Source: an uncultured delta proteobacterium (GTDB taxonomy: Bacteria > Myxococcota > UBA727 > VGSZ01). From it: a DNA stretch of 64,000 nucleotides. The notes under the pieces were generated by a model. The model made no database searches. It was not told where the DNA came from and was given only the letters and a program-made list of their open reading frames with translations. Location: the NCBI GenBank assembly GCA_963775425.1, contig CAVZJB010000011.1, positions 768,001 to 832,000 on the forward strand, read 5' to 3'. The translations under genes and the position numbers were made by a program. This document shows positions 1 to 32,067 of this stretch, in pieces (the first letter of the stretch is position 1; each line of letters opens with the position of its first letter).

Positions 1-403
1 CCGAGCGTGTGCGGGCCGCGGCGCACGAACGTCGCCGTCGTGGTCACCGTGGCCACCTCGCCTGCGCCGAGGGCCACGGCGTGCCGGCGATCGGGGTCGC
101 CGCCCACGGGGAGCGCGCGCGCGGGCAGCGAGTCGACGACGTCGAGGACCACGCCGCTTTGCGCCGGCGCCGCGAGCGAGAGCCTCAGGTCGGCGGCGCG
201 GCCCTCGACGAAGTGCTCGGGCAGGATGCGCTCCACGCGCACGCCCCTGGGCGAGCGCGCGAACACCGCGTCGGCGGCGGCGGCGAGCGCGACGCCCGCG
301 AGGACGAAGATGGCGGCCTCGCCGAACGCGGGCACGCCGAGGCCCATGGCGCCGACGATGGCGACGACGACGAGCAGCCACAAGGCGCGCTCGGTGGGCT
401 CGA

Positions 404-407
<4 letters not shown>
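1..407 (-). CDS. DUF58 domain protein, N-terminal part (runs off window)
   Basis: Own translation [24 protein letters not shown]...[14 protein letters not shown]...RRGPHTLG. ATGA overlap with the MoxR stop; usual MoxR partner. Confidence 0.8.
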
Positions 408-1378
<971 letters not shown>

Positions 1379-1547
1379 ATGGGGCGCACGATCGTCGACG
1401 ACGAGGGTGGCCGTCAACGGGGGCGCAGGTCGTCGCTGACGATGACGTCGTCGAGGACCATGGTGGCGGGGACGGTGCCGTCTTCGACGCGCTCGTCGCC
1501 CGTGATGTCGTTGCGCGACGCGCAGACAGCGGCGGTAGAATCGCTCC

Positions 1548-2306
1548 ATGCCTCCCGTACCCGAGCGCGGCTCTCGCAGGAGCGGCGCGCGACGAATCGC
1601 CCTCGTCATCACAGGCTGCGCGCTCGCCGCTGCGTGCGCGGCGCCGCCCCCCGCCGGCCCCGCCGTCGCCGTGCGCCTGCCCGCCGGCGACTGCCGCCCC
1701 GGCGACGACTGCGCCTTCGACTTCGGCGCCGTCGACGCCGAAGGCAGCAGCGTCCGGGCCTTCGACATCGTCAACACCGGCGACGACGACACCGAGGTCA
1801 CCAACGTCGGCCTCGTCGGCGATCCTTCGTTTCGCATCGGCTCCGCGGTGGAAGATCAACTGCACGCCGGCGGCAGCATCCCCTTCGCCATCGAGGTGAG
1901 CCCGAGGACGGCCTCGACCATCACCGCCGACCTCCGCATCACCAGCGGCGTCGGCGTCGTCGACGTCTTGTTCAGCGCCACCGGGATTGCGCGGGGCGTG
2001 GAGCTCACGCCGCACGTGTGCTCTTTCCGCGACGTCCCCGTCGGCGCCACGTCGGAGCCCTGCACGCTCACGTTCGAAAACTCCGGCGACGCCACCAGCG
2101 TCATCGACGACCTGCGGCTCGGCCCCGCCGTCTTCCAGCCCACCGCCGCGCTCGTCCTGCCGTTGTCCATCGCGCCCGGCGAGCGCGTCGACGTCGACGT
2201 CGTCGCGCGGCCCGAGGAGCGGGGCCGCGTCTCCGGCGCCGTCTCCTTCCTGAAGGACTCCATCGAGGTCAGCGGCGCCGCCGTCCTCGACGTGAACGGG
2301 ATCTGA
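1548..2306 (+). CDS. Lipoprotein with two Ig-like (choice-of-anchor D/ASH-type) domains
   Basis: Signal peptide with lipobox-like LAAAC; two FDFGAV/CSFRDV...NTGD/NSGD...IAPGE beta-sandwich repeats. Confidence 0.7.
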
Positions 2307-3216
2307 CGAGCAGCGCCGCCAGCGCGCGCGCCTGTGCTTCGGCGGCGGGCGCCCCGCGCGCGTCGTCGCCGGCGCGCGGGGGGTCGCCGGGGCGAGGCGC
2401 CAGCGACAGCAGCGACAGCGGCACCAGCAGCGCCAGCGCGAACAGCGCCGTGAGCGGTCCGGTGCCGCGGGCGGCGGCGGCGATGAGCGCGATCTTCCTG
2501 CGCGAGCCGTGGTGCCGCTCGTCGACGACCACCGTGCGCCCGCCGGCCTCAGCGAGCAGGAACGCGGCGTTCCCCGCCTGCGCGATGCCGTCGTTGGCGA
2601 GCACCGTGGCGCTGCCGACCACGCTCACCATCCCCGCGCCGAGCGACCGCTTCACCACCACGCCGTCGTGGCCCGACGACCACGCCACGAACGCGGGCGC
2701 CTTGGGCCGCGGCTCGACGCGGCCCGTGCCGCGCACGTAGAGCGGCGGCGCGTACGCGGGCATGGATCCGGTGGCGCGCGTGAGCAGCTCGTCGCCGATG
2801 GGCACGTCGACGCGCTTGCATTCGACGCCCACCGCCTCGAGGAGCGGGCGCAGCCGCTCGTTGCGCACGCCCTCGTCGTCGTCGCACAGCACGAGGAGGT
2901 GGTCGCCTTGCTTTACGCGGCCGAGCGCCTCGTCGACGTCCGCGCGGCTCCATTCCGAGCCCTCGGGGGGAGGCACCACCAACAGCGCGCCGCCGGCGGT
3001 GCTCGACGGGAGCGGGTCGTCGAAGCGCGCGCGCACCACGACGGGCACCGCCTCCGCGGCGAGCAGGAGCCGCAGCCCGAGCAGCCCGCGCGGCGCGCCG
3101 TTTGTCACGCTGGCGGTGGGGTCGGTGTTGGCGGCGTCGCCGCAGCCCTTGATCAGCGCGGCCCCGAGCACGACGAGGAGCACCGTGACGACGACGATGC
3201 GGCCCGCGCCGCTCAT
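2269..3216 (-). CDS. DUF4350 domain membrane protein
   Basis: N-terminal [50 protein letters not shown]-terminal TM; MoxR operon context. Confidence 0.8.
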
Positions 3217-4118
3217 GCGGCGCCCTCGGCGGCGGCGAGGCGGCGGGCGGCGTCGTCGACGCTGCGCAGGAAGGCGAAGGCGTCGTCGAGCGCAGCCGGC
3301 TTGCCGAAGAACATGGCGTCGAAGGAGGCGAGGGCCGGGCGCACGGTGTCGGCGACGTCGGCGCGCAGCCGCCGCAGGATCTCGCGATGCGTGCGCGCCG
3401 GCGTGACGGCGCGCGCGTCGAGCTCGCCCACGCGGGCGAGCAGCGCGGCCTCGCCGGCGCGCAGGGCGCCGCGGGCGTCGCCGCCGTCGAGCGCGCGCTG
3501 CGCCTGCTCGCGCCAGGCGGCGAAGGCGCGGGTGCGCTCGCGGATGACGGCGGCCGCCGTGCGCGCCGCCGCCCGCGCCTTCTTCGTGCGGCGGAAATTG
3601 CGCGCGAGGCGCACGGCGACGAGCAAGACGACGACGGCGAGCAGCGAGAGGTACACGAGGCGCGCGCTGGTCGCGTACGCGCGCAGGCCCGCGCTCTCGA
3701 ACAGCGACGCGAGCCACGCCTGGACGCGGTGCTCGATGCGGTCGATGAGATCGTCGCCCGTGCGCACGCCGCCGAAGCGCGGATCGCGGGCCATGATGCC
3801 GGCCACCTCGGCGGCGGGGTCTCCCTCGCGCGGCCTCGGGGCGCAGCCGTCGCGCAGGGCGCCGCCGACGACCTCCCACGAGCGCCCGAGCGAGCCCTCG
3901 TCGCCGGCGAGCTCCCGGGCCCGGGCGGTCACGGGCGCGGCGTCGGCGGGCAGCAGCGCGAGCACCTCGTCGAGCTTGTGCATGTCGTCGGCGCCCTCGG
4001 CCGCGAGGGCCTCCGCCCTCGCACACCACGGCGCCGCCTCCGCGGGGGACGAGCCGGCAGCGGGGGACGCGGCGACGGCGGGCGACGCGGCGAGGAGCGC
4101 GACGGCGAGCGGGATCAC
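3213..4118 (-). CDS. DUF4129 domain protein
   Basis: GTG start overlapping the upstream stop; C-terminal GDARGALR...PARTHREI...FDAMFFG pattern. Confidence 0.7.
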   Translation of the reverse strand: MIPLAVALLAASPAVAASPAAGSSPAEAAPWCARAEALAAEGADDMHKLDEVLALLPADAAPVTARARELAGDEGSLGRSWEVVGGALRDGCAPRPREGDPAAEVAGIMARDPRFGGVRTGDDLIDRIEHRVQAWLASLFESAGLRAYATSARLVYLSLLAVVVLLVAVRLARNFRRTKKARAAARTAAAVIRERTRAFAAWREQAQRALDGGDARGALRAGEAALLARVGELDARAVTPARTHREILRRLRADVADTVRPALASFDAMFFGKPAALDDAFAFLRSVDDAARRLAAAEGAA

Positions 4119-5127: not shown

Positions 5128-6714
5128 ATGCGCACACCCACCCTGAGCGTGGCCGCCGGCCTCGTCCTCGTCCCGGCGCTCGCCGCGTTGCTCGCCGCCG
5201 CCCCCGGCCACGCCGAACCTGCCGCGGGCGGCGCCAGCACCGCCGCGGCCGGCGGCGCCACCGCCGCGGCCGGCGCCGCCACCACCGGGGATGCCGCCGC
5301 CCCGGGTGCGGCGCCCCATGAGCTCGCCGGCGCCCAGGCCTTCGAGGACAAGCTCGCCACCGGCGCCCTCGAGGCCGGCGCCATCAAGCCGTGCACCGCG
5401 TCCGCGTCGTTGGACGCCCCCGAGGACGGCTCGTTGTCGGGGAAGATCAAAAACGCCCTCGCCGCCGGCAACATCGCCATCGCGCTCGTGCTCGTCCTCT
5501 TCGGTGGGTTTTTGACGGCGCTGTCGCCGTGCGTCTACCCGCTCATCCCCATCACGCTCTCCATCCTCGGCGCGCGGCAGGCCGGGTCGCACACCAAGGG
5601 GTTCCTCCTCGCGAGCACGTACGTCGGCGGCATGGTGATCCTCTACTCCACGCTCGGCGTCGCGTTCGCCGCGTTCGGCTTCCTCGCGGGGTCGGCGCTG
5701 CAAAGCCCCGTCGTCACCATCGGCGTCGCGCTCTTTTGCATGCTGATGGCCGCGAGCATGTTCGGGGCGTTCGAGCTCGCTTTGCCCTCGAGCGTCCAGA
5801 CCCGGCTGTCCCAGGCCGGCGGCGGCGGCTTCAAGGGCGCCTTCATCATGGGCCTCGTCGCGGGCATCATCGCGGCGCCCTGCACGGGCCCCGTGCTGAG
5901 CTTCATCCTGGCGCTCATCGCCCGCGACGGCTCCGTGGCCAAGGGCGCGCTCTTGATGTTGACCTACGCGCTCGGCATGGGCTTCCCGTTCCTCGTGCTC
6001 GGGACCTTCTCGCAGGCGGTGGCGCGCATGCCCAAGAGCGGCCGCTGGATGGAGGTGGTGAAGAGCATCTTCGGCCTCCTGATGCTCGGCGCCGGCCTCT
6101 ATTACCTGCGCATCGGCGTCCCCGCCGTCGGCGACGCCTTCGCCCCGCTCGGCAAGAGCCCGTGGCTCGGCCCCGCGCTCGTGGTGCTCGGCGTCCTCCT
6201 GGGCGCGCTGCACCTGTCGTTCAAGATGAGCTCCTCGCCGGAGAAGGCCCGCAAGGCGGCCGGCGTCGCCCTCGCCACCCTCGGCATCGTCTCGTTCATC
6301 GCCTGGGCGGTGGCCGGCCCCGCGGAGAGCGCGGCCGGGGGCATCGCCTGGACCGTGGTGAAGAACGAGGCCGACGGCACCGCCAAGGTGGACGCCGCGC
6401 TCGCCGCCGCGAAGAAGGACTGCAAGCCCGCGATGATCGACTTCTTCGCCGAGTGGTGCGTCGCCTGCAAAGAGCTCGACCACAAGACCTACGTCGACGG
6501 CGCCGTCCAGCAGGAGGCGCAGCGCTTCGCCGCGCTGAAGATCGACGCCACCGACGACTCGCCCGCGCTCGACGCGCTCCGCAAGCGCTACGGCGTCCAG
6601 GGCCTGCCGACGGTGGTCTTCGTCGACGGCAACGGCACGGTCCGCGAGCGCCCGCGCATCACCGGCTTCGTCGACGCGCCGACGTACCTGGAGCTGATGA
6701 AGTCCGTGCGCTGA
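5128..6714 (+). CDS. dsbD: Thiol:disulfide interchange protein (DsbD membrane domain + thioredoxin)
   Basis: LSPCVYPLIPI and AAPCTGP transmembrane cysteines; IDFFAEWCVACKE thioredoxin motif. Confidence 0.92.
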   Translation: MRTPTLSVAAGLVLVPALAALLAAAPGHAEPAAGGASTAAAGGATAAAGAATTGDAAAPGAAPHELAGAQAFEDKLATGALEAGAIKPCTASASLDAPEDGSLSGKIKNALAAGNIAIALVLVLFGGFLTALSPCVYPLIPITLSILGARQAGSHTKGFLLASTYVGGMVILYSTLGVAFAAFGFLAGSALQSPVVTIGVALFCMLMAASMFGAFELALPSSVQTRLSQAGGGGFKGAFIMGLVAGIIAAPCTGPVLSFILALIARDGSVAKGALLMLTYALGMGFPFLVLGTFSQAVARMPKSGRWMEVVKSIFGLLMLGAGLYYLRIGVPAVGDAFAPLGKSPWLGPALVVLGVLLGALHLSFKMSSSPEKARKAAGVALATLGIVSFIAWAVAGPAESAAGGIAWTVVKNEADGTAKVDAALAAAKKDCKPAMIDFFAEWCVACKELDHKTYVDGAVQQEAQRFAALKIDATDDSPALDALRKRYGVQGLPTVVFVDGNGTVRERPRITGFVDAPTYLELMKSVR

Positions 6715-28074: not shown

Positions 28075-28151
28075 GCGCCCGTAGCTCAGCTGGATAGAGC
28101 ATCAGACTACGAATCTGAGGGTCGGGCGTTCGAATCGCTCCGGGCGCGCCA
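28075..28151 (+). tRNA. tRNA-Arg(ACG)
   Basis: GCGCCCGTAGCTCAGCTGGATAGAGC...CTACGAA...GTTCGAATCGCTCCGGGCGCGCCA. Confidence 0.97.
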
Positions 28152-28292
28152 GTCGTTGCCCTTCGTCATCTCGGCAAGGATGGCGAAGGGCTTTTTCATT
28201 TCCCATCGCACCGTGACGCCGTCGAGCACCGGGTTCGAAAGCACCATTTCGAGCAGTTGACGCTTCTCCGAGGGCGTGCGCTGGTTCCACAA
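28107..28292 (-). pseudogene. C-terminal remnant of a probable large serine recombinase reading into the tRNA
   Basis: [44 protein letters not shown] resembles tails of tRNA-targeting recombinases; no catalytic N-terminus. Confidence 0.6.
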
Positions 28293-28293
28293 C

Positions 28294-28422
28294 GGTCTCG
28301 CCCCAGACCTTCATCGCGACGTCGGCGACCTCCTCCTTCGGGCACTTGGCGCTCACGACGCGCGCGACGAGGTGCGCGTGGCGCACGAAGAAATCTTGGA
28401 AGGGTGTGTTGTCCTCGCTCAT
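28294..28422 (-). pseudogene. N-terminal fragment resembling ECF sigma factor region 2
   Basis: FQDFFVRHAHLVARVV...EEVADVAMKVW, truncated against the recombinase remnant. Confidence 0.35.
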
Positions 28423-28508
28423 GCCCGCGGGACTGCAGCGAGCTCGCCACCTCTATCGCACCGGGCGCGCGTTTCGAACCGTTCGCGACGTCGGCTACGT
28501 CGACGACC

Positions 28509-28588
28509 CGTAGGGCGGGGGCTCGTCCCCCGCCTTTTCCGTCGGCGGGCGCGCGGGGGGGATGCGGGGGACAAGCCCCCGCCCTACG
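28509..28588. repeat. REP doublet (REPIN-like), GTAG family
   Basis: cgtagggcgggggctcgtcccccgc ... gcgggggacaagcccccgccctacg inverted pair, 24/25 complementary. Confidence 0.75.
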
Positions 28589-29055
28589 CACCGCGGTTCG
28601 CAAATCGTCACACCCGGGCGCGCGTCTCGAACCCGTTGAGCCTGGGGGCGGTCTCGCTCCGATCTCCGCCGGCCGCGAGCCGCTTGCCGCCGGCCGCGGA
28701 TCCGATCCGGGCTGCCCTCGTGTCCCTCGTGTCCCTCGTGTCCTCGGCCAGGACCGCTGCGACCACTTCTGCGCCATGCTCTACAAGTTTCGCTGAGGCT
28801 CGGCGCGCGCGGCGGGGCTCGTCCTCGCCGCGCGTCGAGGTCCGATCTCCGCCGGCCGCGATCCGCTGGCCGCCGGCCGAGCGCCCGAGTCGATGTCGCT
28901 TCAGCGCACCTCGTGTTCTTCGTTCCTCGTTCCTCGTCTCCTCGATCTCTCGCGTCGCCCATCACCCGTCGCTGATCCTCCGCGGGGCCGTTTGAAAGTC
29001 GTCACACCGGGCGCGCGTTTCGAACCCGTTCGCGTCCTCGGCTACGTCGACGGCC

Positions 29056-29148
29056 CGTAGGGCGGGGGCTTGCCCCCGCATCGTAGTGACCCGGCGCCAT
29101 CGAAGGTGCCGGTCCCCCCCGACGCGCCCCACGAGGGGGCGCCCTACG
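29056..29148. repeat. Second, hybrid REP doublet
   Basis: cgtagggcgggggcttgcccccgc ... gggggcgccctacg. Confidence 0.65.
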
Positions 29149-29217
29149 CGCCGGCCGCAATGCCGTCGTCGTTTCGCAGCGCGGTTCGGAAATCGTCACA
29201 CCGGGCGCGCCACACAC

Positions 29218-29263
29218 CCCTCGAAGTTGCAGCATTTTCGATGTTGCGACTCCGAGGGTTTTT
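29218..29263 (+). terminator. Long intrinsic terminator following the duplicated tRNA 3' end
   Basis: 18-bp stem CCCTCGAAGTTGCAGCAT/ATGTTGCGACTCCGAGGG (two G-U pairs, one mismatch) then TTTTT. Confidence 0.75.
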
Positions 29264-29407
29264 CGATCTTGTGGCACCGGTGCCACCGACCGCGTTCGCG
29301 ACGTCGTCGTTTCCGGGCTCGCAATCGTCGCTGCGGGCGCGCGTTTCGAACGCGTTCACGTGCCGACGCAGCCCGTGCCGTCGTCGCTTCGCGACACAGC
29401 CCCCGAG

Positions 29408-30298
29408 CTAGGCGAGGGCGGTGGGCTCGAGGTCGGCTGGCTTTTGAAAGAGCTCGTCGTCGGTGAGGCGGGCGTAGACCTCGACGAGGTTCCCACTTGG
29501 ATCTTCGAGCCACAGCTCATGCAGCGGCGTCCCGCGCCACGTCGTGCGCGGCGGCTTGTGGATCACGACGCCGGCGGCTTTGGCGAGCTCGTACGCGCGA
29601 ACGACGGCGTTCTTGTCGGCGAGGGCGACGCCGAGATGGTTGAGCGTGTCCTTGTGGAGCTCCTTGCCGTCCGACACGAGCAGCACGAGGTTCGTCTTCA
29701 GCTCGGGGCGGACGAAGGTGACGTAGCGGTGCGTCCACTCCTTCGGCTGCGCGCCGAGGAGCCAGGCGTAAAAGCGCGCGCTCTCGGCCAGGCTCTTCAC
29801 GCGCATGCTGAGGTGGAATTCCTCCGGCCGGGGGCTCTCGGGCACGTCGAGGAGGGCGGCGAGGACTTCGAGCCTCGTTTGAATCTGATCTCTCGCCGTT
29901 CGAAAGCGCGCGAGCATCTCGTCGCGCGGCAAGGACGGGTCTTTGCTCGCCGGATCCTGGATGGGCCAATGGAGCCTGCGCGCCTTGCCGAGAAAGACCG
30001 GGCACACTTCCTCGGCGCACAGCGTGATCACGGTGTCGACGGTGGTGGCGTCGATGGTCTGCACGGACTTCGAGTGGTGCGTCGTGAGGTCGACGCCGAG
30101 CTCGCGCATGACCTCGATGGCGTACGGGTTCACCTCGGAGGGCTCGCTGCCGGCGCTCTGCACGGGGATACGCGCGCCGAAGAGCCTTCGCGCGAGGCCC
30201 TCGGCCATCTGGCTCCGGGCGGAGTTCGCGACACAGAGAAAGAGGATCGCCTTGTCGGTGTTCCTGGAGGTGCCGAGCTTGCCGATGTCCCCGGTCAC
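29408..30298 (-). CDS. arsC: Arsenate reductase (LMW-PTP/thioredoxin type) fused to a VOC (ArsI/CadI-like) domain
   Basis: [33 protein letters not shown], then [17 protein letters not shown]...NHLGV...[16 protein letters not shown] overlaps the arsA stop. Confidence 0.85.
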
Positions 30299-32067
30299 GG
30301 CCTCGCCTCCGCGGAGGTCCTCTTCGCCGAAGCGTCGCCGAGCGCGAGGTTTGCGCTCCACGGCTCGACGACGATGTGCGCGGTGTGCTCGCCAAGCTCT
30401 TTGAGGTGGCCCGCTTCATGGGCCTGACGCGCGCGGAGCACGGGATCCGTGACGGCGAGCGGGGTGAGGCTCTGGTTCACGACCCAGGCGAAGGGCTTGA
30501 TGTCGGCGCGCGCGAGGTCGCGCTCGAGCTGCATCGCCTCGTGGATGGGCGTCGCTTCGGGGAGGGTCACGAGGAGGACGTGGGTGAAGTCGGCGTCACG
30601 GAGGCGCGGCAGGAGCTTCTGCACGGCTTCCGGGCTCCCGCTCGGCTTGCGCAGCACCTCGCGGTGGTAGGACTCCGCGGCGTCGAGCAGCAGGAGCGTG
30701 TGACCTGTCGGCGCGGTGTCGATGACGATGAAGCGATCCTCTCCTTGGGCGACGGTCTCCGCGAACGCGCGGAACACCGCGACCTCCTCGGTGCAGGGGC
30801 TCCGGAGGTCCTCCTCGAGCAGGGCCTTCCCCTGCGCGTCGAGGGTCTTGCCGGCGCTCGTCATCACCTCCTCGGTGTAGCGGCGCGTCTCGAGCGCGGG
30901 ATCGATGCGTGTGACGCGCAGGCCGGACGCGCCCGCGCCCAGCTCGCGCACCGCCGCTTCGACGTGGGCGGCGGGATCGGTCGTGGTGAGCGTAACGGGA
31001 AAGCCTCGGCGCGCGAGCTCGCTGGAGATGCGCGCGGCGACGGAGGTCTTTCCGACGCCGCCCTTCCCCATCGTCATGATGACGCCCTTGCCCCGCACGG
31101 CGAGCTCATCGACGAGCGTGGACAGCCGCTCCCCGCGCAACGCGCTCGCCGGAGGCGTCGCGACCGGCCGCTCGGCGCGGTCGCGGGGCGCGCACATCTC
31201 TCGGAGCGCGTCGACGCCGACGAGCCCGAACGGGAGGAGCGGGACATCGATGCGCGGCACCGCGCGCAGACCGGCGGGGAGCTTCTCGAGAGAAGCCCGC
31301 CCCCGCGCCTCCATGGCGACGGCGGTCGGGTCACTCTCGTCCTGCGCGAGGAACACGCCGTTCAAGATGAGGCGCACGTTGGCGACGCCGAGCTGCGCGA
31401 GCTCAGCGCGGGTGCGCTCGGCCTCCGTGAGCGAGGAGCGATCAGGGCGCGCGACCAGGACGAGGATCGTCTGCGAGGGGTCGCGGAGCGCGTCGTTCGA
31501 TGCCGCGTACAGGGCCTTCTGCGCGCTCAATCCGGAGAGCGGACCGAGGCACGAGGTGCCGCCGACGCTTGAGTCGATGTGGCTCGTCCACGCCGCAGGC
31601 AGCTCGAGCAAACGGAGCGTGTGGCCGGTGGGCGCCGTGTCGAAGATGACGTGATCGAACTGCGCTGTCGCGCTGCCGTCGCCGAGGAGCTTCGAGAATT
31701 CGTCGAACGCGGCGATCTCGACGGTGCAGGCGCCGGAGAGTTGCTCCTCCATGCTGGCGATGGCGCTGGCGGGCAAGAGCGCGCGGTACGGACCCACGAC
31801 CCGCTCGCGGTAGTCGTGCGCGGCCTGCTCGGGATCGATGTTGAGCGCCGAGAGGCCCGGGACGTTCGGGACCGCCGTCGGCGTCGCCGACAGCTCCACG
31901 CCGAGCACCTCATCGAGGTTCGACGCGGGATCGGTGCTGACGAGGAGCACGCGTTTGCCGGCGTCGGCGAGCCCGATGGCCGTGGCGCAAGCGGAGGACG
32001 TCTTTCCGACGCCGCCTTTGCCCGTGAAGAACAAGATGCGGGTGGGAATCTTCACGAGCGTAGGCAT
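30295..32067 (-). CDS. arsA: Arsenical pump-driving ATPase
   Basis: Two [20 protein letters not shown], two [19 protein letters not shown]. Confidence 0.96.

Follow-up and report, generated by a model that had tools for sequence, protein, structure and literature searches.

In the 64,000-nucleotide stretch of Myxococcota DNA that we analysed (the window), a tRNA-Arg(ACG) gene (28075–28151, + strand; found by ARAGORN and matched by Rfam RF00005 with 65 bits) is followed by an array of short sites that repeat its own 3' end. The question raised by this locus is what these sites are and how the segments between them came together. An earlier reading of the letters alone (the sequence-only reading) had described five degenerate direct repeats sharing the end of the tRNA, and rightly so. 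CCGGGCGCGC occurs exactly at 28140, 28461, 28614, 29007 and 29201, always on the + strand, the first time within the tRNA and then in four of the repeats, and the fifth reported copy (29333–29342) carries one mismatch. The five sites have a common tRNA acceptor-end core, in which GGGCGCG ends at 28469, 28622, 29015, 29209 and 29341. Measured between these ends, the spacing is 153, 393, 194 and 132 bp; the last two values agree with those first given, while the first two replace 148 and 394. We consider it probable that this is an accretion array, similar to SCC and CIME structures, built on the attachment (att) sites of a decayed mobile island of a large serine recombinase (LSR) at tRNA-Arg, with pick-up and drop-off of modules through internal sites.

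The core by itself would be compatible with chance matches in GC-rich DNA, as the sequence-only reading had cautioned for such an all-GC string: the 10-mer occurs 10 times in the whole window against 4.75 expected, an enrichment of only about twofold, and one of 100 shuffles also reached 10, so little can be built on the 10-mer by itself. The similarity among the sites extends, however, over 25–34 nt, which is beyond chance, and has the consensus GGTTCGnAAAnCsTC, then about five variable bases, then the acceptor core GGGCGCG. This arm pattern (19 specified bases) has 17 matches in the source genome (G000) against none for its reversed control, and the modules that the sites delimit are 86–100% identical between loci, which leaves a chance origin with hardly any credibility.

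The anatomy of the locus is that of an island inserted at the tRNA 3' end. On the near side lies the remnant of an LSR gene, its last 58 codons (28128–28301, − strand), which align in tblastn with residues 461–518 of an intact copy on contig 3 of the same genome (90% identity) and whose reading frame enters the tRNA 3' end antisense. Inside this C-terminal coding sequence and directly 3' of the tRNA there is a hairpin with a T-run (28158–28197, + strand; 14 pairs in the terminator scan; −25.5 kcal/mol, z −5.8). It is predicted to serve as a replacement terminator, and the same hairpin lies downstream of the tRNA in the related genomes G006 and G002. The homology of relatives' DNA ends at window position 28302. 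On the far side, attR (29181–29212, + strand) consists of an LSR attP-type arm followed by a copy of the tRNA 3' end (29201–29212), identical over 12 nt to the last bases of the tRNA (28140–28151, the attL block); in G006 and G123 the corresponding block is shorter, at 9 and 8 nt. A second strong hairpin (29218–29258) followed by T5 comes next, forming the displaced tRNA terminator (29218–29263, + strand; −27.5 kcal/mol, z −5.7). Sequence and fold thus bear out the earlier description of an exact 12-nt copy with a strong terminator behind it.

The proposal that the tRNA's own terminator has been pushed about 1.05 kb away also gains support, with 29201–29212 behaving as attR and the terminator lying beyond it. 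The tRNA-Arg(ACG) genes of relatives have a hairpin like 29218–29258 immediately downstream. In four relatives the gene upstream in the window is syntenic with tRNA-Arg(ACG), and none of these four loci carries an array; two of them have a terminator right behind the CCA, these empty-site relatives being members of other genera in which the downstream flank is not conserved. Site 5, the degenerate one (29316–29357, + strand; repeat family D1; 86% identity to site 3 over 37 nt and four mismatches to the arm consensus), lies downstream of the supposed native terminator. This position is unexplained and counts against the reading we prefer; the site may be an older relic, or a 132-bp module bearing the terminator may end here.

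The enzyme behind such an island can be recognized from its intact relatives. The source genome has one intact LSR, that of contig 3, and both this protein and its homologue in G006 contain all three Pfam domains (Resolvase, Recombinase and Zn_ribbon_recom), with matches at E 2e-6 to two structures of the A118 integrase (4kis and 6dnw); the LSR's closest annotated matches in a phage collection are serine integrases with 26–28% identity. Of 201 Myxococcota genomes, 8 have homologues at E ≤ 1e-60, and in 8 of the 11 homologue loci scanned the LSR open reading frame overlaps at its 3' end with a tRNA gene (tRNA-Met, four Arg isoacceptors, Gln, Asp and Glu). This points to an LSR clade that sits on tRNA 3' ends in Myxococcota. 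With three recombinase domains in the intact homologues, a shared att core and an unoccupied target in relatives, the locus has the features of an LSR integrative element. The integron-like drive suggested by the sequence-only reading therefore holds for the link between sites and recombinase and fails for the enzyme, which is a large serine recombinase and not an integron-type integrase. A candidate joint between the end of contig 13 and the start of contig 18, which would have united an island tail with an LSR, was rejected, as there was neither overlap nor N-terminal coding sequence.

Relatives also reveal where the arm of the sites comes from. In G006 it ends both islands, at distances of about 5.7 and 8.7 kb from their LSR genes; in G005 a single copy is followed by a terminator; and in G123, whose LSR is 35% identical and sits at tRNA-Glu, the attR, located independently through the duplicated tRNA 3' end, combines the same GGTTCnAAAnTCnTC arm with a tRNA-Glu core. 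The stretch previously called T-loop-like is thus the conserved far-end (attR) arm of these LSR islands, and the tRNA-specific part of each site is limited to its last 8–12 nt. The view of the repeats as att-type sites tied to the recombinase remnant that abuts the tRNA is supported by this shared arm, while their derivation from the tRNA applies to these last bases and not to the attP-type arm of the LSR clade.

The sites could instead be functional RNA elements, tRNA-like 3'-trailer or processing signals co-transcribed with the tRNA, since they lie on its strand and carry its acceptor 3' strand and a TTCGAA-like stretch. We regard this as very improbable: at the repeats, Rfam at E ≤ 1 returns only noise, the one match being 28075–28148, ARAGORN finds in this region the real tRNA alone, the site at 28590–28645 folds no better than its shuffles (z +1.2), and the terminator at 28158–28197 lies directly 3' of the tRNA. 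Nor do the sites have the dyad layout of a recombinase target that was first attributed to them. In sites 1–5, attL, attR and the reconstructed attB and attP, dyad symmetry passes the 95% shuffle level by one match at most, and we abandoned the dyad argument, together with the placement of a central dinucleotide, because the scores resemble those of shuffled sequence. The 9-nt inverted arms do exist, but they are the paired termini of a single 146-nt hairpin module (z −6.3).

The segments between the sites are modules without a recombinase, in agreement with the earlier view of them as non-autonomous. Module alpha (153 bp; 28470–28622, + strand) follows the left half of site 1 (28455–28469, + strand; repeat family D7) and is a REPIN-like doublet of REP hairpins (fold z −6.3) that ends in its own arm (28593–28622); it has 16 copies on 8 contigs, 86–100% identical. 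Next comes a segment of 393 bp (28623–29015, + strand) with its own arm variant (28988–29015), and here the description of the segments as non-coding is only partly right. Positions 28737–28796 (+ strand) hold the last 19 codons (28737–28793) and the stop of a PF05635 gene (gene 2; tblastn residues 92–110, 89% identity), the sole remainder in the window of a gene pair that is intact in sister copies. These have an extra 0.7–1 kb at 28739/28744, and the full module elsewhere measures 1.37–1.40 kb and contains two divergent genes with PF05635 matches (E-values 1e-19 and 2e-18; the family is the 23S rRNA IVS protein, a four-helix bundle). The segment is thus a deletion derivative of a two-gene module. 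Module delta (194 bp; 29016–29209, + strand) is a second type of REP doublet, 77–84% identical in its body to scattered REP doublets, and its end arm forms attR. The filler that separates the recombinase remnant from site 1 (28302–28454) is unique, with no similar DNA or translated match in the genome or the compared loci and no Pfam match; it is unexplained and, like site 5, we count it against the preferred reading. With its LSR down to 58 codons and its only coding module without its genes, the array in the window appears to be inert.

The same modules recur across the source genome. A looser scan for the arm gives 57 hits, 40 of which fall into nine clusters, and two clusters directly abut other tRNA-Arg genes (TCT, contig 10; CCT, contig 16), with modules joined at or next to the acceptor core; the alpha modules at these two genes have no terminator of their own between them and the tRNA. 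The intact LSR island on contig 3 ends in the order arm, RAYT module, alpha, DUF433/DUF5615 module, alpha, attR. Alpha has at least five different left neighbours and five different right ones, always cut at GGGCGCG, and each module type retains its own arm variant in every locus. The PF05635 genes, 99–100% identical across five loci each, indicate that the modules have spread recently. The idea that they are a fixed constituent of the LSR element was rejected, as they are absent from the G006, G002, G005, contig-3 and contig-18-start loci; that the contig-3 island, home of the only intact LSR, is among these speaks against the preferred reading. Likewise rejected was the encoded CCA as a marker of the crossover: it is missing from the contig-10 tRNA-Arg(TCT) at its alpha junction, and this is not diagnostic because four of eight relatives' tRNA-Arg(TCT) genes lack it too.

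Amplification by RAYT of BIME-like clusters of REP doublets, with the tRNA-like core as a linker motif of the REP family, might be proposed for such a distribution. Alpha and delta indeed have bodies in which a GTAG-tagged REP hairpin stands in inverted pairs, this hairpin has 138 copies in the genome, three Y1_Tnp (RAYT-like) genes were hit, one of them within an array module, and contig 8 has a tandem array of a 77-bp REP. These features fit REP/REPIN elements with RAYT for the bodies of alpha and delta only. Scattered REP copies align to window positions 28487–28533 or 29038–29148 and never to the core, and both core and arm are lacking from the 95 copies that lie outside arrays, so scattered REP units do not include the array sites with their arm and tRNA core; the arm ends LSR islands in G006, G005 and G123 without any REP, and the same sites also bound gene-bearing modules. 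An explanation by REP and RAYT is, in consequence, improbable for the array as a whole.

How the modules came to be stacked is a separate matter. The sequence-only reading had proposed serial integration of single elements, one by one. The block alpha, PF05635 pair, delta is repeated in the same order in six loci, and contig 18 has three tandem alpha copies, 99–100% identical and with private variants in common. The conserved order argues for movement of blocks, or for duplication and gene conversion, over integration cassette by cassette, and unequal crossing-over is sufficient for the three contig-18 copies. Serial single-cassette integration is not supported because the modules mostly move in blocks; block transfer and unequal crossing-over explain much of the pattern.

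These same observations nourish a more conservative explanation, in which all copies are inert relics of one ancestral LSR island tail, multiplied by homologous recombination, gene conversion and tandem duplication, with the internal sites as fossils. The block order kept in six loci, the locus-specific and nearly identical tandem alpha copies, the insignificant dyad symmetry and the single intact LSR in the genome are all consistent with it. Homologous recombination cannot, however, explain the exact placement at the acceptor core of three tRNA-Arg genes and a tRNA-Met-type repeat, and duplication of a single tail would hardly give every module type, those with RAYT and DUF433/DUF5615 among them, an arm variant of its own. 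We therefore find this explanation rather unlikely, though more serious than those based on REP amplification, RNA function or chance.

Under the accretion reading, the island would carry a tail of passenger modules devoid of recombinase, and the array would read site-module-site-module because every passenger ends in its own attP-type arm variant. Upon integration, the near end of the island would rebuild the last bases of the tRNA and supply a new terminator, both within the LSR C-terminal coding sequence, while the original tRNA end and terminator would be moved about 1.05 kb off, to attR. If excision used an internal site and not the outermost one, the distal modules would stay at the tRNA; an island could integrate beside such a leftover tail, and a later excision through the outermost site would take it to the next tRNA-Arg gene. 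Unequal crossing-over would locally expand tandem alpha copies. The modules in the window are not autonomous, and any movement would require the contig-3 LSR in trans. Canonical LSRs are known to join attP to attB only, or attL to attR if a directionality factor is present; recombination through internal sites would be non-canonical, a point against this reading.

A close parallel in organization is provided by the SCC and SCCmec composite islands of Staphylococcus, in which the large serine recombinases CcrAB and CcrC target the 3' end of a housekeeping gene, rlmH (orfX), which stays intact, and recombinase-less elements lie in tandem between short att-like direct repeats. Here, too, there is an LSR, an intact 3'-end target and recombinase-less tandem elements between att-like repeats (five sites in the window, 40 in nine clusters). 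The target, by contrast, consists of tRNA genes (several Arg isoacceptors and Met) and not rlmH, and the modules measure 50–1400 bp, many of them non-coding REP doublets, whereas SCC elements reach kilobases to tens of kilobases. With tRNA genes as its targets, the array would work like SCC without being a member. The CIME-ICE systems of Streptococcus thermophilus (ICESt1/ICESt3), for which PMC5704250 sets out a three-step model of integration, decay and accretion, resemble it in having decayed elements with att sites alongside which newcomers integrate and in a tandem that can move jointly; they depend on tyrosine integrases and conjugative elements instead of an LSR. The islands studied here are of 5–9 kb, with miniature passengers and no conjugation genes seen.

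Integration of serine recombinases in tRNA genes is called rare in PMC3218068, which names phiRSM1 at tRNA-Ser and Mycobacterium AICEs at tRNA-Leu. These share with our islands a serine recombinase acting on a tRNA 3' end, and ours differ in clade and phylum, in an open reading frame whose 3' end overlaps the tRNA and bears the replacement terminator, and in their tails of site-bounded modules. Islander-type islands likewise have a tRNA gene that is split and restored and a displaced 3' fragment marking the far end, but they are credited to tyrosine integrases in the literature on them (PMC4383910). Compared with integrons, the array also has short modules, each with its own variant of the recombination site, and cargo genes that are TA-like or of unknown function. 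It lacks attI, an IntI beside it (the sole recombinase remnant there is of the serine type) and attC-type folded sites (z +1.2 for 28590–28645), and among its modules are non-coding hairpins and divergently oriented gene pairs. An integron equivalent run by a serine recombinase, in which the LSR stockpiles, drops and re-collects attP-armed modules (REP doublets, the RAYT gene, the DUF433/DUF5615 pair and the PF05635 gene pair) and reaches every tRNA-Arg isoacceptor gene, is a more speculative idea that we put forward tentatively.

The arm pattern matches G006 twice and G005 once and is absent from eight other genomes of the family. Among 185,579 species genomes it gave 28 single hits, of which inspection by eye retained three as real (the G006 and G005 copies), the other 25 being chance hits in coding sequence. 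A metagenome scan with a 20-nt arm string revealed no further arrays, its two hits being a short contig with an attR-like arm and a chance hit in coding sequence. The public read run X1 (0.07 of sampled words) gave foreign tRNA matches and one 198-nt contig on 28536–28725, with no joints; no excision circle, empty allele or copy-number variant came to light, and at this coverage the run speaks neither for nor against them. In limited term searches, we found no description of LSR-bounded arrays of mini-modules at tRNA genes.

Islands at tRNA genes are usually credited to tyrosine integrases, and here a whole clade of Myxococcota LSRs appears to use tRNA 3' ends; its crossover would fall within the recombinase gene itself, which also brings a replacement terminator. 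One genome has accumulated about 40 copies of the clade's attachment arm, with miniature passenger modules between them. Should the internal sites be inert, they still provide a clear record of how islands decay and leave their tails behind tRNA genes. If they are active, this would be a simple natural system to stack and move short DNA modules by means of a serine integrase. Such a system, with its several natural tRNA landing sites and arm variants, would be of interest to integrase engineers as well as to those who study mobile elements.

Behind tRNA-Arg(ACG) (28075–28151, ARAGORN), the window carries exact copies of CCGGGCGCGC at 28461, 28614, 29007 and 29201 and, with a single mismatch, another at 29333; these five sites (1–5) all lie on the plus strand. 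The acceptor core GGGCGCG ends at 28148 in the tRNA and then at 28469, 28622, 29015, 29209 and 29341, giving intervals of 321, 153, 393, 194 and 132 bp from the tRNA to site 5. On its own, the 10-mer shows only a roughly twofold enrichment (10 copies in the window vs 4.75 expected, with 1 of 100 shuffles reaching 10), and the likeness among the repeats extends beyond it, over 25–37 nt. The copy at 29201–29212 is identical to the final 12 nt of tRNA-Arg(ACG) and is followed by a hairpin with a T5 tract (29218–29258; fold −27.5 kcal/mol, z −5.7). These coordinates, the extended similarity and the fold confirm the repeats and the tRNA-end copy with its terminator that had been noticed in the sequence-only reading. 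The “dyad layout” then ascribed to the sites is not evidence, since their dyad symmetry is no higher than that of shuffles. A second hairpin terminator (28158–28197, terminator scan and fold) lies immediately 3′ of the tRNA; site 5 is placed past the supposed native terminator and, just past the array, a minus-strand gene (29408–30361) encodes a fusion of low-molecular-weight phosphatase (LMWPc) and Glyoxalase domains.

Comparison with relatives, all from other genera, bears on the idea that the array displaced the tRNA's own terminator. Of the 15 loci compared in relatives, 4 have tRNA-Arg(ACG) in synteny with the gene that lies upstream in the window, and the arm pattern scan detected no arm (the conserved sequence preceding the core) at this locus in any of the four. 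In two of them, G009 and G005, a terminator immediately follows the CCA. Displacement of the terminator in the window would agree with this, although conservation between genera does not extend to the downstream flank. In the relative G004, the same hairpin-rich stretch of ~60 nt occurs 3′ of tRNA-Arg(ACG) (L005, C203) and of tRNA-Arg(TCT) (L035, C283) and may be another small module common to tRNA-Arg genes.

The recombinase remnant said to abut the tRNA is present. The minus-strand frame reading into tRNA-Arg(ACG) corresponds, with 90% identity, to residues 461–518 of a 518-residue protein whose gene adjoins tRNA-Met on contig 3. This protein and its homologue in the relative G006 contain Resolvase, Recombinase and Zn_ribbon_recom domains, match A118 serine integrase structures (E 2e-6) and have serine integrases as their nearest annotated matches in the phage collection (26–28% identity). 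These three lines of evidence identify the enzyme as a large serine recombinase (LSR), of which the window keeps only the last 58 codons. The window's own genome (G000) has one intact LSR copy, on contig 3, and a broken one with which contig 18 begins. In the latter (1–3510), which is truncated by the contig start, a ~2 kb interruption separates residues 454 and 455 and an in-frame stop occurs towards the end; it adjoins a tRNA-like 3′ fragment without a tRNA gene. LSR homologues (E ≤ 1e-60) occur in 8 of the 201 Myxococcota genomes sampled. In a scan of 11 loci that left out the contig-18 fragment, a tRNA gene overlaps the 3′ end of the LSR ORF in 8 (Met, Arg-CCT, Arg-CCG, Arg-ACG, Arg-TCG, Gln, Asp, Glu), the other 3 having no tRNA call; the G006 ORF stop falls within the tRNA. 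Part of the conserved LSR C-terminus is encoded by the element-borne terminator hairpin at 28158–28197, which is also found 3′ of the tRNA in G006 and G002.

The arm had been read as T-loop-like. In G006 one arm lies at the far end of each of its two LSR islands, ~5.7 and 8.7 kb from the tRNA side, and G005 has a single copy followed by a terminator. A more distant LSR (35% identity) is located at tRNA-Glu in G123, where the far end of the island (attR) was found independently of the arm, through a repeat of the last 8 nt of tRNA-Glu; the 22 nt preceding this repeat contain the same GGTTCnAAAnTCnTC motif, followed by the tRNA-Glu core in place of the Arg core. The arm is thus the conserved attP-type arm of this LSR clade, the copy of the target tRNA being limited to the last 8–12 nt. 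A pattern of 19 specified arm bases matches 17 times in G000, twice in G006, once in G005 and never in 8 other family genomes, and its reversed control matches nowhere in these genomes. In a collection of 185,579 species genomes that excludes G000, it gave 28 single matches, of which only three, the G006 and G005 copies, look real by eye. G123 also has, ~30 nt before the start codon of the LSR, a second arm-like motif (L086, 1725–1751; C178) that may represent an internal site, a regulatory site or chance; contig 3 and G006 have no counterpart at that position. The outer flank of attR in G006 (L022/L014, about 6517–6545; C17) is similar to the sequence natively found downstream of tRNA-Arg(TCT) in G002 (L034, C260), even though the near end of the island is at tRNA-Arg(CCT), which may reflect rearrangement between tRNA-Arg loci.

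The segments between sites are modules of several kinds. Alpha (28470–28622) is a doublet of GTAG-tagged REP hairpins in inverted orientation and folds into one long hairpin (z −6.3); the inverted arms described earlier exist, but as its two ends. The REP hairpin has 138 copies in G000, and none of the 95 outside arrays carries an arm or core. Five tandem copies with a 77-bp period lie on contig 8 (146603–146958), remote from array sites. The 393-bp segment (28623–29015) is a shortened form: six other loci have an extra 0.7–1 kb at 28739/28744, and the full-length form contains two divergent 110-residue genes of the PF05635 family (23S rRNA IVS protein; E 1e-19 and 2e-18), each intact in 5 loci with 99–100% amino-acid identity. 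Only codons 92–110 of one gene remain in the window, and the “non-coding” status given to the segments has to be corrected for this module. Delta (29016–29209) is a second REP-doublet type, and its arm forms attR. The segment at 28302–28454 matched nothing in sequence, translated and Pfam comparisons, and the left half of site 1 is non-arm sequence. Site 1 (28455–28469) carries a 15-nt fragment that matches the 3′ end of G002 tRNA-Arg(CCG) at every position; ARAGORN found no tRNA-Arg(CCG) in the G000 assembly, which is 94.5% complete and has several arrays at contig ends, so that some tRNA loci may be missing from it.

A looser scan of G000 yielded 57 matches, 40 of them in 9 clusters: at the start of contig 2, on contig 3 (259–261 kb), at each end of contig 6, on contig 10, in the window, on contigs 13 and 16, and on contig 18 at 265–269 kb. 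One good copy is isolated (contig 11, position 478878), and the remaining 16 matches, with four mismatches and without the arm, are chance-like. On contig 10, the acceptor core of tRNA-Arg(TCT) adjoins the first module, on contig 16 a module lies immediately 3′ of tRNA-Arg(CCT), and the clusters of contigs 13 and 18 and of the contig-3 island sit at the end of low-GC (55–65%) DNA. This island begins with tRNA-Met and another tRNA-like 3′ end, to which the LSR gene is fused, and continues with ~6 kb of cargo up to the first arm. Beyond this arm come an 879-bp module encoding a Y1_Tnp (RAYT-like) protein, alpha, a 738-bp DUF433 + DUF5615 module, alpha again and a tRNA-Met-type repeat junction; the island lacks the PF05635 module. 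Downstream of the island, tandem units with a 104-bp period (L013, 10640–12000; contig 3, about 261.1–261.6 kb) each repeat the T-arm and acceptor 3′ end of tRNA-Met, and it is one such unit, not tRNA-Met itself, that holds the inserted LSR element with its tail. Across loci, at least five left-hand and five right-hand contexts of alpha can be distinguished, with the cut at GGGCGCG every time. Alpha copies share 99.3% identity on contigs 3, 6 and 13, as do those on contigs 13 and 16, and each module type retains its own arm variant. Alpha, the PF05635 pair and delta keep the same order in 6 loci, which indicates that blocks, rather than single cassettes, are the usual unit. The three tandem alpha copies on contig 18, 99–100% identical and with private variants, are as unequal crossing-over would give.

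This anatomy agrees with what is most likely an LSR island integrated at a tRNA end, with a tail of modules that lack a recombinase and are individually bounded by att-type sites. Excision via an internal site would leave the distal modules at the tRNA and would yield the direct tRNA–alpha junctions on contigs 10 and 16, whereas excision via the outermost site would take the module tail along. Precise junctions at three tRNA-Arg genes and at the tRNA-Met-type repeat, the varied contexts of alpha, the module-specific arm variants and the near-identical copies across loci favour sites that would be active or recently active. The block order, the tandem alphas of contig 18, the dyad result, the intact-LSR island without PF05635 and the position of site 5 speak against this or limit it. 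The original interpretation, serial integration of miniature elements or an integron-like cassette array, receives partial support, with corrections to the enzyme, to what the arm is and to whether one module is coding.

SCC composite islands also combine an LSR island with a tail of recombinase-less, att-bounded modules; the array described here works alike without being a member, its target being a tRNA. The same holds for CIME–ICE accretion, which is known to have this layout too (PMC5704250), with the further difference of recombinase family. The resemblance to integrons is confined to site-bounded modules, and none of the defining integron features tested applies here; the REP/RAYT system accounts for the alpha and delta bodies, though not for the sites. 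One paper terms it rare for serine recombinases to integrate into tRNA genes and gives phiRSM1 and Mycobacterium AICEs as examples (PMC3218068), and the Islander paper ascribes tRNA islands to tyrosine integrases (PMC4383910). A limited literature search retrieved no account of LSR-bounded mini-module arrays. In the window, the copy is an inert relic; the object of interest is the genome-wide family of LSR-site-bounded modules.
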